Part shown: one piece after another, positions 1,688-7,375 of the stretch
Layout: each line of letters opens with the position of its first letter
Numbering within the stretch: position 1 is the stretch's first letter
Notes under the pieces: generated by a model
What the model was told of the DNA's origin: nothing
Databases searched by the model: none
Seen by the model: only the letters and a program-made list of their open reading frames with translations
Program-made: the position numbers and the translations under genes
Assembly (NCBI GenBank): GCA_044351795.1
Contig: JBILFA010000006.1
Span: 1-60,787 of the forward strand
Direction: 5' to 3'
Length of the DNA: 60,787 bases
Source of the DNA: Bdellovibrionota bacterium
GTDB lineage: Bacteria > Bdellovibrionota_C > UBA2361 > OMII01

Positions 1688-2671
1688 CTACATCGTCTCG
1701 AATTCGTCGGTCGTCTCTGACGAGCCCGCGAGCGGGTTGCCTTGCTCAAGTTGATATGGGGGTAGGTCCGCCCGCCCTTTTTGAATCCAAAGCGCCTGAG
1801 ACCGATCTCGTTGAAGTGTGGCGAGTGTGCTCAGCGCATTTTGTAGCGCCGCGTGGGTCGGATAATACTTCGCTGGCAGCGCCACTTCGGGTGCTTGTCC
1901 GGTAGTGCGAATAGATTCGCACCACCGAGCAGCCATCTGCACGTCCCGTGCGATCTCCATTTCCTCGCTCGAGCCTGTTTCCATCAGTCCGCTGAGAGCG
2001 CTCGCTATAGCGGTCGATCTCATGATTCCGAAGCCCAAGCTTTGTACAAGCACTGAGCCGATCTGGATGCGCGTGCACCCCCACTGCTGTATCTCCAGCT
2101 CACAGTTCCAGCTGAGCCGCTGTTTCTTGAGAAGTCTCCTATAATCCTGAAATCCTTTTGAATCGTGACGGAGAAAGGCTGTCACTCCAAGGATCGGAGT
2201 TACAGCTTGAAGAAGACTCAGCCCTCCACCGATGGCCGGAATCGCTCGCCCGAGCAGGAGGCCCATATTGATGCTCTCCGCCAAGGAGTCTTCTATGAAC
2301 TTGATCTCCTCTGCATCGCAGAACGATTGGGCTCGTCGCCACAGGTAAGTAACCGCCAAGATCGACGCTACCTCGTGAGGCGAGAATACTTTCAGGACAC
2401 TCAATTCGGGGGTTCGTGATGTGCTTGATATGACAGAAGGTTCGAACGCATAGGCAGCGAAGTAGAAGGGGGCGAAGAGCGAGGGGCTCCTCAAGAGACG
2501 CGCCATTTGGTGACGCGTCGAGCCTGATATCTGAGACTCTCCCTTTGCGTGCGCACTCAATAGAGCTCTAACGGCTGTTACGAAGGGTGCCGGGGGTTGG
2601 CCGAATACTCCCGCGTACTGCCGCGTGTATTCCCAACTTTGGGCGCTCATGCTCTCGTTTGTGTCCGACAT
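1688..2671 (-). CDS. Hypothetical protein, degenerate HDOD-like helical domain
   Basis: 327-aa ORF. 'ELEIQQWGCTRIQIGSVLVQSLGF' resembles the HDOD C-terminal E...G.H.EIG..L...W.F motif. Confidence 0.5.
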   Translation of the reverse strand: MSDTNESMSAQSWEYTRQYAGVFGQPPAPFVTAVRALLSAHAKGESQISGSTRHQMARLLRSPSLFAPFYFAAYAFEPSVISSTSRTPELSVLKVFSPHEVASILAVTYLWRRAQSFCDAEEIKFIEDSLAESINMGLLLGRAIPAIGGGLSLLQAVTPILGVTAFLRHDSKGFQDYRRLLKKQRLSWNCELEIQQWGCTRIQIGSVLVQSLGFGIMRSTAIASALSGLMETGSSEEMEIARDVQMAARWCESIRTTGQAPEVALPAKYYPTHAALQNALSTLATLQRDRSQALWIQKGRADLPPYQLEQGNPLAGSSETTDEFETM

Positions 2672-2682
2672 CTTGCTAGGAA

Positions 2683-2710
2683 CTATCGGCTAACCAATCG
2701 ACTAGGTTTA
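2683..2710 (-). promoter_or_regulatory. Sigma28 (FliA)-like promoter of the HDOD-like gene
   Basis: Minus strand reads TAAA-N16-GCCGATAG (consensus TAAA-N15-GCCGATAA), 11 nt upstream of the ATG at 2671. Confidence 0.55.
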
Positions 2711-2819
2711 CAGTGCGTTTGGTCGAAAAGAGGAATTTCTTGCAGGCTATACCGGTGAAGTCTTGTGGACGACGCCCTATGATACACACGATGGACATAT
2801 GTGCTCTTTGACGAAATGT

Positions 2820-3356
2820 CACTTTACTAGAGCTGTGCTAGAGAGGAGACAAGAACGGTTTCTGTAGTGTTTTCGCCGTCATAGCCCGCGAAATCGAACA
2901 GCACCTAGCGCAGAGCTTGCTATTTTTGAGTGAAACAAATCATCGATTTCGCGTTAAAGGGGCTTTCTTGATCAGAGCAGTGCGGAGATGGCCGAGGACG
3001 GTTAATCGGCGTGTGCTGATGATGTGTCACCCGCTCTGAGTGCCTTCCGGACCGAGAGGATCAAGATGACTCACCTTACAGTGAGTGATGATGCGGTCGG
3101 CTGATGCCGATCAGATTCGGCACGGATGCGCTCGTGTGTGGAAAAGGTGAAGGCGACCAAAGTGTTGCTTTTTTCGTGAATGCAGCATGTCACATCACCT
3201 ACAAAGTGTTTCTACCGGGTGAGCAAAGCTCCTTGAAGAAGAGCATTATGCACTCGGATGTAACAGTAGTTCGATTCAAGGTGACATAATGATCTTGTCG
3301 GTCGAGTCCAACGAGTGAACTCCATCGTTACGTAGAGCGGCGCTTCTTTTGATCAA
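2820..3356 (+). ncRNA. Candidate structured RNA, module A
   Basis: Pairings: CGCGAAATCGA 2887-2897/TCGATTTCGCG 2943-2953 (11 bp perfect); 2968-2977/3347-3356; CCGCTCT 3031-3037/AGAGCGG 3334-3340; 3050-3063/3290-3303 (13 of 14 bp); ACTCAC/GTGAGT; TGCCGA/TCGGCA; ATGTCAC 3187-3193/GTGACAT 3281-3287; CCGGGTG/CACTCGG. No credible CDS. Confidence 0.4.
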
Positions 3357-3514
3357 CCGAAAAAACCGGAACAGCGATTTTCACGCGCAAAAACTACGAT
3401 TTTCAATTTGAGTGCGCGATGTGAACAAAAATTTCGGCGAACGAAAAAACACATGTGGAAAAATAAGTGCGCCCCTTTCATTTGAATCGTCATCACACAA
3501 GTTGAAATAAGTAC

Positions 3515-3543
3515 TTGCCAATCTCAAAAAGCGGTGCCAACCT
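3515..3543 (+). promoter_or_regulatory. Possible sigma70 promoter for RNA module B
   Basis: TTGCCA-17 nt-CAACCT with TG at the extended -10 position, preceded by an A-tract-rich stretch (about 3357-3510). The -10 is a weak match. Confidence 0.3.
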
Positions 3544-3553
3544 GCACCAAGAG

Positions 3554-4060
3554 TTGCGCTGAGCACCGTCAAGTACTCGCAGAGTAGTTTGCGAGGAGGA
3601 GGTGCTCGACAGGAGGAGTCGTTACTGAATTCTTCTCGTCACGAGGCGTAACGACGTGACTCACGAGTAGTAGAAGAGTGAGAAGCGGAGTTCGATAAAG
3701 GTTTGTTGAGAGCGCCTGATTTCTATCGAGACGTCGTGTAAAGGTGTTCCTCAAAGCTGCAAGTAAAATTCTTTCTTGCGAAGTTTTCAAAACTGAGCGC
3801 AAGATAGAGGTAGGCAGCTAGTAAAGTGCAGTAAATGTTAAGCTCTGTTTCTTATCATCCGATAGGAAGGAGCAGACAGACTCACGAGTGATAATGCGAA
3901 GCATCGTTCACTACTGAAGAGCTTTAGCCGCACGTGAGAAAACAAGTTTCGGTCAAGCGATGCTTGCGGGTTTGGGGAGAACTTCTCGCTGAAATCCGAT
4001 TAGTAAAGTGAGATCGGTAAACAAAGGTAGATGAGAGACTGGGGACGCTCGGCCCTCATC
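3554..4060 (+). ncRNA. Candidate large structured RNA or very long 5' leader, module B
   Basis: TTGCGCT 3554-3560/AGCGCAA 3796-3802 closes a multiloop containing GAGCACC/GGTGCTC, CTCGCAGA/TTTGCGAG, GTCGTTAC/GTAACGAC, CTCAC/GTGAG, TCGATA/TATCGA and GCAAG/CTTGC. Downstream are TTCTTATC/GATAGGAA, AAGCATCGTT 3899-3908/AGCGATGCTT 3956-3965, CCGAT/ATCGG and GATGAG 4030-4035/CTCATC 4055-4060. Loops are purine-rich. Confidence 0.55.
3839..3865 (+). promoter_or_regulatory. Sigma28-like promoter inside module B, oriented toward the Lys-rich micro-ORF
   Basis: TAAG-N15-TCCGATAG. It overlaps a hairpin, so the match may be incidental. Confidence 0.3.
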
Positions 4061-4079
4061 AACATTGGAGAAAAAGAAA

Positions 4080-4166
4080 ATGGCAGCTAAGAAACCAGCA
4101 AAGAAAGCTACGAAGAAGACCGCTCCTAAGAAGAAGACCACTAAGAAGGCTTCTAAGAAGAAGTAG
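4080..4166 (+). CDS. 28-aa Lys-rich histone-H1-like micro-protein (MAAKKPAKKATKKTAPKKKTTKKASKKK)
   Basis: Translated by hand; it is below the ORF-track cutoff. GGAG SD followed by an A-rich spacer, 14 of 28 residues Lys, strongly biased AAG/GCT codons, and a terminator directly after. Confidence 0.8.
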   Translation: MAAKKPAKKATKKTAPKKKTTKKASKKK

Positions 4167-4187
4167 TCAGACGTTTGTAGCGTCTAC

Positions 4188-4228
4188 AAGGGCGTCTTCA
4201 GTCTTCGTAGGCTGGAGGCGCTTTTTTT
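4188..4228 (+). terminator. Intrinsic terminator after the micro-ORF
   Basis: AAGGGCGTCTTCAGTCT-loop-AGGCTGGAGGCGCTTTT stem (G-U pairs on the + strand) running into a T7 tract. Confidence 0.8.
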
Positions 4229-5414
4229 ATTTATATTTCAGGTAATTAAGGGTACTGCAGGCGGGCGAGGGCATCACTGGGGAAAGGCACAGCTCAGCGC
4301 GCATGTTCCGCTCAGGCTCTAAGCACCCTCCTGCAGTCTCAAGGTATGATTGAATGTCCTCGCGGGCTGCCTGAGTGAATGAGACGGTTACTCCCCGCGG
4401 TGCCGGATTCATCACAGAGCGCTTACCTGTGTCGTGAACGGCGCTTAGATTGTGGCCTATCTCGTGCGCTACCAGCACCGGTTGGAGAGCTCTGCTGACC
4501 GCTTGCGAGATCCCGACATTGAACCGACCCTGCTCCATACATGCTGTCCCGACATACGCGAGTCCGATCGTATTTCCATCCAAGTGTTTACCGGTGAAGA
4601 GGTGGTGTACGTCCGCAGCCAAACGTCCCCGTCGTGGTTGGCGACGGAAGCTCTCGAGGACGTTTTCTGCGGTTGCTATGGAAACTTGTGCGGAGCCTTG
4701 ATTGGTGACCCGCAAAGATATCGGCTTGATTCGGATACCGAGATCGGCTGTATACAAAGTGTCGGCAGCACGGAGAGCAGAGCGAATATAGTTGCGAGTC
4801 TGAGGGCCGAATCTTCGAAAAAATTCATAATCAGCTTCTACATCGACCTCGAGGACTCTTAATGGACGAACGGGCTGCATACGACCCCACTCCCTCGTCG
4901 AAGTGTGTGATACGTGCGGGGATGTGCTTACTGCGCTCTGTGCTCCTACTGCACAATTGATTGATACTAGGGGAGCCGAAGCCAGGATTGCAGGGCCAAG
5001 CTCGAGCCCTTCGGCGTTTTTGCTGAAAGAGAACTGCATCGAGTGGGGGCGACCCCGACGGCGGGAGGAAAAATAGAGGAACCCCATATCGCCGAAGATC
5101 GAGAGTGAAGCTTTTGCGCTCGTTGCGCCCAACGAGCGGCGCATTGATGCCCCGATGTAATGTCTCTCAGATTCGGTGTCGCTTTGGCTGGGGTCCGGTC
5201 TGAAGCTGAACGTGTGCACGCCTTCCTTCGTTTCAATGCTCAGGAAGAGTGACTGCTTGGAGTTGGTGTCGGCGAGTCTTTCCAGTGTACCCCGGAGAGG
5301 GGCGGCAGTGGCAGGGAGTGAGCTCGCGAGAGGCACAACACAGAACAGTGCCAGAAGCTTGGACAAGGAACGCAGCACCTGTGATTTCGATAGGTTGAAA
5401 CGGAATTTACGCAT
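4227..5414 (-). CDS. Secreted M12B/reprolysin-like zinc metalloprotease
   Basis: Signal-like N-terminus, 'LEVDVEADYEF', 'TIGLAYVGTAC', HEIGHNLSAVHD zinc motif, Met-turn 'SVM'. Confidence 0.85.
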   Translation of the reverse strand: MRKFRFNLSKSQVLRSLSKLLALFCVVPLASSLPATAAPLRGTLERLADTNSKQSLFLSIETKEGVHTFSFRPDPSQSDTESERHYIGASMRRSLGATSAKASLSIFGDMGFLYFSSRRRGRPHSMQFSFSKNAEGLELGPAILASAPLVSINCAVGAQSAVSTSPHVSHTSTREWGRMQPVRPLRVLEVDVEADYEFFRRFGPQTRNYIRSALRAADTLYTADLGIRIKPISLRVTNQGSAQVSIATAENVLESFRRQPRRGRLAADVHHLFTGKHLDGNTIGLAYVGTACMEQGRFNVGISQAVSRALQPVLVAHEIGHNLSAVHDTGKRSVMNPAPRGVTVSFTQAAREDIQSYLETAGGCLEPERNMRAELCLSPVMPSPACSTLNYLKYK

Positions 5415-5587
5415 ACGATTGCCAGCACTGCCAAAGGTAGTATCGCCTTCCTTCTAGCAAAGTCGGGGTTGCTAAGGTAGCTCGGAGCTCTGGAGCAGAC
5501 GTAAGTATTTCAGAGGGGGGAGCTGTGCTCTTTGTTCCGCTTGTTTTTTCAATAAGTTAACCTCTTAGATAAAGAGGACTCGGTTGC

Positions 5588-7375
5588 CTATCGGTCGAAT
5601 CCCACACCGACTGACGCTGCCTGTCCTCCCACTTGCTCGCTGCGTAGTCGAGCACCGAAGAGTTGACCGGCAGCGAGAACCACGCGGGGCTCGAAAGCTC
5701 CGCTACCATCGGGACCGTCGCGAAACGGAAACGCCACATCGATGCGTACGACACCGCCTCCGGAGGCTCGCGGAAAGCATAATCGAAGTCCGAAGCCGAA
5801 GTCGCCATAGAGTTCGTCAGTGACCATTGTTCCGAGAGCGTCACGTGAGGCAGCGCCGACATCCACGAACAGAGCTGTTCCCAGGCTCACGAGTTGAAAG
5901 GCGTCGTCGACTAAGTGCCCCCGTTCTTCAAAGTTGAGCACGACCCGTTTGTCTCCTTCGAAGGCGAACGCTTCGTATCCACGAAGCCCTGTGTCGGCAC
6001 CCAGTGGGAGCTGACGATCTCGGTCGAGATTTTCTCCAAAGTCGATGAAGAAATTGGTGGCCCAGGTGTGCTTGCCCATGTACTGCTCTCCCCAGAACCA
6101 ATCGCCCAGGATGGAGTAATACTTAGCTTCGGTACGGAGGAGGGTGTTGGCCAAGCGATCGTCTTCCCAGCGCCCCGACCCACCTATCTCGCCACGTAGC
6201 ATAGAGCTCTCCGAGAGCCGCCAGCCACGGCTGCGGTTGAAGGACGGTATCAGGGCGTTCTGTACAGAGCCGAGAGAGCGGGGAGCGATCTGCGCGTTGA
6301 ACAGCGACTCGTCTCCGAGGTTGTAATCCTCCGGACGATCGAACCGATCTATGTATGCCAGGGTCATGAAGTTGGGTTGAATGTTCTGATATTGGAATAC
6401 CGGGCCGCTAAAGCGCCTAAGGCTCGGTAGACGGGATGGATCGTTGCTTACCTCGGTTGGGTCGAGGTTGAGATCTTTGTAATCTTCGGCGTCTGCTTGA
6501 TAGAAGGAGGCTGCTTCGTAACGATAGCCGACTGAAAAACGTTGCGAGAGGATCTTTTGATCGCGGTATATCCCGGTGTAGCTCCGGCTCTCCCCGGCCA
6601 ATGCCTTGGTCGGGCCGGCAAAGGTGTAGAGAGCTGAGAAATCGTCAAGATGTTGCCGGAAGATGTAGTCCTCAGTGCCATCCTTGAACAGGCGCCCGAT
6701 CGTATTGGCTCCCGCGGTATCCATTCTCCAGGCATCTTGCTGCATCAAGCTTCGGAAAGGGAGCCCCCCACCGAGCAGGTAGGTTTTTCCATCTGAGCGA
6801 TCGGAGGCACCAACCAGAAAATTCTTGCGGGTGCCCAGGAACTGAGGATCCGTGTACACAACGCCATAGCTTTGTCGGGTGTACTCCTCCTCGTAACGGG
6901 TGTCGATGCGAGCCGCAGTTCCGGCGAGGTTAGAGTCGGTCAGTCCTATACCGCGGTTGCGTCCCCCGGTACCCGAGGAGTAGCTCAGGAAAGGAATGAG
7001 AGTCCAACTGTCTCGAACCTCAACCAGTACGTCAACCGCATCACCATAGAAGGCAGGGGTGACTTTTACCCCGCGCAGGTACCGCAGTAAGCGCAGATTA
7101 CGCGCCGTCTCTTGCAGCTTGAAAGGGATGTAAGGGTCCCCTTCCTTGAATAGTAGTTCGCGCCGAACGACCTCCTGACGGGTCTGAATCTTTATGTTGT
7201 TGGCAGTTCGATAAAGGATCGATGAATCGTCTTCGAAGACCTCTCCTACCTTAATCTTGATGGATCGAATGTACTGCCCCTTGCGTGCCGGGATGATCTG
7301 ATTCTGTTTTTCATCCGCGTGTCCCGCGCTGGACGCTATAAAAAGCGCTAAGCAGAGTAATAAGAAGCGAATCAT
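5588..7375 (-). CDS. Omp85/BamA-TamA-family outer membrane protein with a single POTRA-like domain
   Basis: Start moved to MIRFLLLCLAL (signal peptide). 'TRQEVVRRELLFKEGD' POTRA, 'GLRGY' lid motif, 'FGFGLR...VRIDVAFP' barrel end. Confidence 0.8.
   Translation of the reverse strand: MIRFLLLCLALFIASSAGHADEKQNQIIPARKGQYIRSIKIKVGEVFEDDSSILYRTANNIKIQTRQEVVRRELLFKEGDPYIPFKLQETARNLRLLRYLRGVKVTPAFYGDAVDVLVEVRDSWTLIPFLSYSSGTGGRNRGIGLTDSNLAGTAARIDTRYEEEYTRQSYGVVYTDPQFLGTRKNFLVGASDRSDGKTYLLGGGLPFRSLMQQDAWRMDTAGANTIGRLFKDGTEDYIFRQHLDDFSALYTFAGPTKALAGESRSYTGIYRDQKILSQRFSVGYRYEAASFYQADAEDYKDLNLDPTEVSNDPSRLPSLRRFSGPVFQYQNIQPNFMTLAYIDRFDRPEDYNLGDESLFNAQIAPRSLGSVQNALIPSFNRSRGWRLSESSMLRGEIGGSGRWEDDRLANTLLRTEAKYYSILGDWFWGEQYMGKHTWATNFFIDFGENLDRDRQLPLGADTGLRGYEAFAFEGDKRVVLNFEERGHLVDDAFQLVSLGTALFVDVGAASRDALGTMVTDELYGDFGFGLRLCFPRASGGGVVRIDVAFPFRDGPDGSGAFEPRVVLAAGQLFGARLRSEQVGGQAASVGVGFDR

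Follow-up and report, generated by a model that had tools for sequence, protein, structure and literature searches.

The window analysed here, a stretch of 60,787 nucleotides from a Bdellovibrionota bacterium, carries on its plus strand a micro-ORF (4080..4166) of 28 codons followed by TAG (4164-4166), which encodes the peptide MAAKKPAKKATKKTAPKKKTTKKASKKK and is identified from its conservation, its coding signature, its genome-wide rank and the RNA contigs that lie over it. Lysine accounts for 14 of the 28 residues, the KK and KKK groups being separated by A, T, P or S, and D, E, F, W, Y and R are all absent. The product is expected to be a 28-residue, acid-free polycation (+14) that is intrinsically disordered. 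A Shine-Dalgarno (SD) sequence, GGAG (4067..4070, plus strand), is located 9 nt 5' of the ATG within an A-rich unpaired stretch, and GGAG is kept 5' of the ATG in every listed ortholog. The lysine codons are AAG in 12 of 14 cases, the corresponding fractions being 0.66 in the long ORFs of the genome and 0.80 in the contig of fusA, tuf and the ribosomal-protein genes, and all six alanine codons are GCT or GCA. The unit closes with an intrinsic terminator (4188..4235, plus strand), in which a 17-bp G+C-rich hairpin (4188-4225, seven G-C pairs) is followed by the T-run TTTATTTATA. A preliminary description of this DNA had listed the 28 residues with 14 lysines, the SD sequence, the codon bias and the terminator, and each of these elements was present on re-inspection. 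An alternative TTG start at 4065 would give a protein of 33 aa; this TTG is absent from the relatives, and the start is therefore placed at the ATG at 4080. The +2 frame from 4081 is open for 74 codons, is rich in Arg and Leu and has no conserved start; it is a by-product of the AAG repeats.

The lysine density of the micro-ORF was ranked against the whole assembly (3.77 Mb, 226 contigs), for which 110,763 stop-to-stop frames of at least 20 aa were collected in six frames. The densest 24-residue window, with 13 lysines, is that of the micro-ORF, and even 9 of 24 is reached by only 13 of the 110,763 frames. This top rank excludes a chance origin of the micro-ORF.

On the upstream side, a divergent gene (1688-2671, minus strand) encodes a 327-aa protein without a Pfam match at E 0.1. 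The 1.4 kb between this gene and the micro-ORF (2672-4079) contain no ORF longer than 77 aa, and only the part from about 3458 to 4079 can be aligned with the three closest genomes (77-83% identity); a distance of about 600 nt between the upstream gene and the micro-ORF is also found in most relatives. On the downstream side, the terminator faces the 3' end of a convergent metalloprotease gene (4227-5414, minus strand). The genes nearby encode a subtilase, the 327-aa protein (minus strand), a reprolysin-like M12B peptidase, Omp85/BamA-type proteins and a MacB/FtsX ABC system. Across the window and the ortholog loci, ribosomal genes were not found adjoining the micro-ORF, and no ppk or other polyphosphate gene was seen in its neighbourhood. 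A homologue of the 327-aa neighbour adjoins versions of the micro-ORF of 26, 27 and 34 aa in three genomes from other families of the order, one of which also has the peptidase downstream.

The arrangement at the 3' end is conserved among the orthologous loci. A hairpin of -22 to -34 kcal/mol stands before a T-run in 32 of 33 loci, the stem sequences being different, and a convergent gene for a reprolysin-like M12B peptidase lies downstream in 27 of 33. This arrangement bears on a regulatory reading of the locus, by which the Lys-codon mini-ORF would report on lysyl-tRNA, EF-P or the state of the ribosome and the peptide itself would be irrelevant. The length of the leader would suit such a sensor, and ribosomes are known to stall at consecutive Lys codons; yet the terminator follows the ORF at once and the next gene is convergent, so that there is nothing to regulate in cis, AAG is favoured over the slippery AAA, and the Ala and Thr spacing residues are conserved as well. 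We regard a sensor as very improbable. The class of leader peptides and attenuators was rejected, as no regulated gene was found downstream on the same strand.

Within the genus, a degenerate pattern of free length (ATG-GC..AAR AAR ... AAR AAR AAR TAR) found one copy each in 32 of 35 genomes; it was not found in the remaining three, the completeness of which is 83-94%. The reversed pattern, used as a control, matched once in the 124 genomes of the phylum sample. Across this sample the strict pattern is met mainly in one family (f1, 32/35), with scattered true matches elsewhere (for example G035, G040, G069 and G120). A profile search of the 124 phylum genomes found 26 genomes and missed carriers (for example G022, G014, G017, G023 and G013), hence it provides no basis for absence. 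At the level of DNA, 3900-4260 matched 23 of 24 genomes of the same genus, and the core common to them is exactly the SD sequence plus the ORF.

The loci change in the manner of a coding sequence. The 33 distinct loci comprise 15 peptide variants of 24, 25, 26 or 28 aa, and all 73 pattern matches among the fetched loci are divisible by three in length. Frame-breaking indels or a loss of the ATG or SD in close relatives had been named in the preliminary description as grounds for abandoning the gene; neither occurs in the 33 distinct loci, all of which also keep the stop, and in all listed orthologs the stop directly follows KKK. The same description had looked to synonymous changes in relatives as a check. 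Over 25 well-filled codon columns, the variable columns number 8, 3 and 15 at codon positions 1, 2 and 3, respectively, so the third position is the most variable, and the wobble changes in the micro-ORF are GCA/GCT, ACC/ACA/ACT and AAG/AAA. The Lys columns always stay Lys, and the other substitutions are swaps among Ala, Thr, Ser, Pro and Val. A conserved start, SD and stop, indels of whole codons and an excess of third-position change are the general marks of a real gene. To judge from them, the micro-ORF is a protein-coding gene under purifying selection for composition, rather than a product of chance or a plain RNA element.

The region 5' of the ORF is occupied by a long leader with three conserved hairpins, an addition to the first reading of the locus. 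The first hairpin, D0 (3838..3878, plus strand), is of two tiers, with a dG of -10 to -18, and is found with many compensatory stem changes in all 32 loci (of the 33) in which its anchor was located. In D1 (3949..4017, plus strand), a long stem-loop, the closing helix is the invariant CGGUC/GAUCG; this helix appears in 27 of 33 single-sequence folds, and RNAalifold, which recovered it as well, gave seven pairs, one of which occurs as UA in 18 loci, UG in 10, GC in 4 and CG in 1. D2 (4022..4067, plus strand) ends at the SD sequence, has its base formed from the conserved GUAGA and AUCAAC blocks and is present in 32 of 33 single-sequence folds, the inner stems being different. The segment 3941-4082 has a minimum free energy of -43.3 kcal/mol (z -3.18), and none of 200 shuffles was as stable. 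The leader blocks TTTCGGTCAAGC, GATCGGTAAAC and ATCAACATTGGAG have exact copies in the whole genome only at the micro-ORF locus, therefore they do not belong to a repeated element. In Rfam, no credible family was found for 2600-4400 at E<=1, the sole match being mir-1251 (22.8 of 81 bits), and the three matches in 3450-4240 at E<=10 are all far below gathering.

Further upstream, an element at 3484..3545 (plus strand) consists of the core AAATAAGTACTTGCCAA (3505-3521) and a small hairpin, GGTGC-CAACCT-GCACC. It is nearly invariant in the four closest genomes. The core is kept in 23 of the 33 family loci, mostly 550-610 nt 5' of the ATG, and is unique in the genome except for one match with two mismatches. 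The RNA contigs of two relatives extend to about this element, which may be a promoter or the 5' end of a long leader. In this strain the leader has a length of 254 nt or more, which may reach about 570 nt. Read on the minus strand, the portion 3505-3545 has the score of a terminator-like site. No plus-strand promoter emerged from a sigma-70 scan of 2600-4400. In most relatives, and not in the window's own clade, the pair AACCTT-N16/17-TCAAAT lies 5' of the upstream element; we take it to resemble the promoter consensus of ECF sigma factors. This pair was rejected as a promoter candidate, for it is not enriched in this genome (3-5 matches, vs 1-6 for other spacers).

A second promoter candidate is situated inside D0, where 3838-3864 reads TTAAG-N16-CCGATA, letter for letter the FliA attack-phase consensus of B. 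bacteriovorus. In that organism the motif is reported for 92 of 140 attack-phase promoters, and it was assigned to FliA by Karunker et al. (PMC3627812). Of the 33 loci, 32 have a relaxed form at -228 to -285, in which the spacer is always 16 nt and takes 29 different sequences; seven have the motif in its exact form. A spacer so fixed in length and so varied in sequence looks like that of a promoter. Four observations argue against it: the bases of the motif covary as an RNA hairpin; an identical RNA contig (run X18) begins upstream of it, at 3826; the genome has four exact matches to the motif vs 0-3 for spacers of 13-15 and 17-19 nt; and none of 10 flagellin upstream regions contains it. The segment 3838-3864 may be a promoter, an RNA structure or both. 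The genome has at least eight full flagellin genes and 12 Sigma70_r2 matches above the family cut-off, and no common sigma-28 motif is obvious in its own flagellin upstream regions.

Transcription of the locus was assessed in metatranscriptomes. Six runs matched a small share of 3400-4400, and four of them were examined as assembled contigs; all four contain contigs on the leader or the ORF. A 243-nt contig of run X18 is identical to 3826-4068 and a contig of run X21 is identical over 3866-4033, while a contig of run X22 lies on 3895-4098 with two differences. Run X20 holds the 627-nt contig of a relative, which lies on 3750-4192 with 34 differences, extends another 186 bases in the upstream direction and stops at the foot of the terminator. 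In a second X18 contig (615 nt), positions 525-565 match the start of the ORF and the letters upstream resemble the leader of a sister genus (locus L061). In these four runs, which had been chosen with 3400-4400, no contig was found on 3400-3750 or 4216-4400; the same holds for 2600-3750 and 4216-5600, the comparison being fair only within 3400-4400. The contigs give neither the strand nor the ends nor the level of the RNA, and they have no same-sample DNA control. The unit of leader and ORF is present in RNA libraries from which its flanks are absent, and is transcribed; we infer from its coding signature that the ORF is translated. The stand-alone gene proposed in the preliminary description is supported by its presence in 32 of 35 genomes of the genus, by a terminator of its own in 32 of 33 loci and by the RNA contigs over its locus.

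The contigs cover the leader more than the ORF, and this distribution, together with the high degree of structure of the leader and its three hairpins 5' of the ORF, could be read as the mark of a non-coding RNA, the ORF being untranslated and its purine-rich AAG tract serving as an element of the RNA, for example as a protein-binding A-R-N repeat. Such an RNA would hardly keep ATG, SD and stop in all listed orthologs and admit indels of whole codons only. Moreover, the GCN and ACN codons vary only at the third base although they are not A-R-N words, and the design of the ORF recurs in unrelated lineages with unrelated flanks. We consider the non-coding alternative highly improbable and treat the locus as a gene for a peptide.

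That recurrence was seen in a pattern scan over one genome per species, which gave at least 120 matching stretches and at least 80 loci. Among the matches listed, 38 of 80 loci have an in-frame ORF of 21-32 aa with a K+R fraction of at least 0.4, and most of these 38 ORFs have a GGAG-type SD sequence and a downstream hairpin. A further 36 of the 80 listed loci are without an in-frame ORF, and six have a lower K+R fraction (0.19-0.37). The positives among the matches listed come from the Acidobacteriaceae, from Bradyrhizobium and other Alphaproteobacteria, from the Chitinophagaceae and other Bacteroidota, from the Dormiibacterota, the Verrucomicrobiota and the Planctomycetota, and from a Heliomicrobium, a CPR bacterium and a Methanosarcinales archaeon. 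In a few of these positives, such as L109 and L125, a long open frame lies upstream, and the ORF may be the C-terminus of a larger protein. One locus of the Dormiibacterota (L134) has two tandem poly-Lys micro-ORFs of 22 and 24 aa on one strand, about 400 nt apart, each with its own GGAGG and hairpin. The DNA of a locus centred on Bradyrhizobium erythrophlei matched 50 of 81 genomes of its family, and all 20 loci fetched from the Bradyrhizobium family (L215-L234) contain MAKKAKKAKK...KKK ORFs of 27-55 aa behind the invariant GGAGGGCAAC. This gene, of the form MAKKAKKAKK...SAVKKTAKKT(R/K)KVAKKKK, has a GCCGGC-type hairpin 3' of it and changes in length by whole codons. The poly-Lys micro-ORFs of the other phyla share with the one described here a common design, M-A-(A/T/K)-KK...KKK-stop, with 21-55 aa, a strong SD sequence, their own terminator and often a folded leader. 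On the evidence of these sequences, the micro-ORF appears as one case of a widespread class and not as a single oddity. The low complexity of the peptides means that homology and convergence among the lineages cannot be told apart.

The preliminary description had predicted that standard gene callers would miss the peptide. In keeping with this, a collection of 15 billion proteins contained not one of 30 peptide sequences (24-112 aa) sought as exact matches. The 55-aa peptide of the Bradyrhizobium family is present in the ESM Atlas, where its neighbours are clusters of 45-49-aa "hypothetical proteins", followed by clusters with 10-21% HC2 members. None of the 2,234 word-sharing candidates for this 55-aa relative reached E<=0.01, a result that is uninformative for a sequence of low complexity.

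Searched at E<=10, neither the 28-aa peptide nor three of its orthologs (25, 27 and 34 aa) matched a Pfam family or an NCBIfam model. The four micro-proteins thus have no match to HC2 (PF07382, gathering 40 bits) or to the Burkholderia H1-like model (NF038053, cut-off 80 bits). A likeness to H1 models appears in a longer, 112-aa Lys/Arg-rich protein (L029, 854-1192, minus strand) of a genome from another family of the order (G028), for which no synteny with the micro-ORF was found. It matches hist_H1_lk_Burk (NF038053) at E 6.5e-5 with 23.3 bits, below the cut-off of 80 (the reference being shifted by four codons in frame), and HC2 (PF07382) at E 0.038 with 14.5 bits, below the gathering threshold of 40 bits. 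Given the lack of a model match and the low complexity of the micro-proteins, kinship with the H1-like families cannot be established.

The composition of the peptide has close counterparts in its own genome. Second in Lys density to the micro-ORF comes a frame that corresponds to the N-terminal extension, 60 residues long, of an HU protein (Bac_DNA_binding, E 1.1e-23; contig C24, 5723-6184, minus strand, locus L235). The extension opens with MAKKPTKSKKPVKK... and in this resembles the micro-peptide closely. Topoisomerase I of the same genome has a similar Lys-rich tail at its C-terminus. A 109-aa protein (contig C217, 6396-6785, minus strand, locus L236) is rich in Lys in its N-terminal half, MATKKKAVQKKTVKK..., and has no Pfam family in its C-terminal part. 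Contig C217 also carries a flagellin gene.

Among proteins described elsewhere, the chlamydial Hc2 (HctB, PF07382) and Hc1 (HctA) resemble the micro-peptide in combining Lys with Ala, Thr, Pro and Ser and in lacking acidic residues. Hc1 has a folded or N-terminal domain, whereas the micro-peptide has none. Hc2 is similar also in its change of length by whole units, varying from 165 to 237 aa by Lys-rich pentamers according to PMC2848022, and in its presumed compaction of DNA by charge. The micro-peptide differs from it in being 6-8 times shorter and in belonging to a different phylum. The residue alphabet and the KK/KKK spacing are shared with the C-terminal domain of H1, the tail of mycobacterial HupB, AlgP, the Burkholderia H1-like protein (NF038053) and the HU and TopA proteins of the same genome; unlike these Lys-rich tails, the micro-peptide has no DNA-binding fold to anchor it, the tail being a complete protein whose gene has a promoter region, a leader and a terminator to itself. 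By analogy, it most likely works like proteins of the Hc2/AlgP type, but it is not a demonstrable member of those families. To our knowledge, bacterial Lys-rich H1-like proteins occur in few bacteria and are always of at least 100 aa or present as tails on folded domains. The H1-like proteins met in the full-text literature searched (Hc2, AlgP, DdbA and HbhA) are likewise all longer. In this openly accessible literature, PMC10919886, PMC10117765 and PMC11456600 included, no description of a stand-alone poly-Lys micro-protein was found. What is new here is a gene for the tail by itself, 24-28 codons long, which is conserved and transcribed and yet passed over by annotation pipelines.

The micro-ORF is a genuine single-copy gene of an uncultured, predatory-type genus of lake water, and we think it reasonably probable that its peptide is a disordered polycation acting on nucleic acid in the manner of a free histone-H1-type tail. 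The gene forms its own transcription unit, with a long structured 5' leader, a strong and unpaired SD-AUG region, the 28-codon ORF and the intrinsic terminator, and the conserved hairpins of the leader probably set the stability or the translation of the mRNA. Through its charge alone, the peptide would attach to the phosphate backbone of nucleic acids and, as a free-standing equivalent of the Lys/Ala/Thr/Pro tails of histone H1, chlamydial Hc2, AlgP and tailed HU proteins, would neutralise and compact DNA. The assignment to nucleic-acid binding derives from the K/A/T/P composition, the freely varying length and the weak likeness of longer relatives to H1 models; the residue set (K, A, T, P, S and V) and the KK/KKK spacing are those of H1-type tails. 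It is by analogy with these tails that we infer DNA, in the nucleoid, to be the main target. Against a preference of this kind stands the chemistry of a polycation, for which rRNA, mRNA, polyphosphate or anionic lipids would be no worse ligands than DNA, and no observation reported here sets DNA apart.

The affinity for RNA raises the alternative of an RNA- or ribosome-associated micro-protein, either seated in a pocket of the rRNA, as are bS22, bL37, Thx and eL41, or acting as a general RNA coat. These four proteins have much the same range of size and charge as the micro-peptide, and they too often escape the notice of gene callers. The strong SD sequence, a preference for AAG and GCT like that of the ribosomal-protein contig and a structured leader are, likewise, features that recall autoregulated ribosomal-protein mRNAs. 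The four proteins are rich in Arg and fixed in length and sequence, whereas the micro-peptide has Lys as its only basic residue type and is variable in length, with 24-28 aa in one genus and 21-55 aa in other lineages, unlike what a fixed rRNA site would be expected to hold. It has no Arg, no aromatic or hydrophobic anchor residue and no match at E 10 to an NCBIfam model, those of bS22, bL37 and Thx included, and no ribosomal gene adjoins it. The length and the residue order drift while the charge and the acid-free state are fixed, a pattern more in accord with electrostatic binding of a non-specific kind than with a tailored ribosomal site. A role of the peptide on RNA or the ribosome is, in our estimate, unlikely.

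Other polyanions would offer the same chemistry as DNA. The peptide could be directed to polyphosphate granules, to coacervates of RNA and polyphosphate, or act as a general counter-ion in the way of a polyamine. The H1-like AlgP is reported to space polyphosphate granules (PMC9239181), and the broad phyletic spread of the poly-Lys micro-ORFs would fit a generic physico-chemical role. Such a role cannot be told from DNA binding by sequence; the neighbourhood of the micro-ORF shows no ppk or polyphosphate gene. We hold this alternative to be decidedly improbable, and retain the H1-type tail acting on nucleic acid as our preferred reading.

A broader proposal, which we put forward as speculative and rather unlikely as a whole, is that the encoded oligolysine peptides (21-55 aa, with their own structured leader and terminator) constitute a widespread and almost entirely unannotated class of counter-ions, a protein-coded analogue of polyamines and protamines that would serve the nucleoid or RNA in bacteria and some archaea. 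In the organism described here, the gene may be switched on in a non-replicative, swimming stage of the attack type, by way of the FliA consensus in its leader; the peptide may help to form the dense nucleoid of attack-phase cells, and the hairpins of the leader may allow it to repress its own mRNA. An attack-stage gene of this kind would parallel chlamydial Hc2, the gene of which (hctB) appears in work on sigma-28-dependent late genes, as far as the accessible text of that work goes. The nucleoid of attack-phase B. bacteriovorus is reported to be unusually compact, for a cause not yet explained (PMC8445325), and a condensing peptide of this phylum would on that account merit a test. Should the cell indeed produce the peptide, it would be an abundant polycation invisible both to proteomes, in which trypsin destroys it, and to gene catalogues, and it would bear on the compaction of the nucleoid, on the biology of RNA and polyphosphate and on the number of real genes below the 30-codon limit. 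The design is present in cultured relatives of Bradyrhizobium, and the question is thereby directly testable. The DNA of the window itself occurs in lake-water metagenomes.
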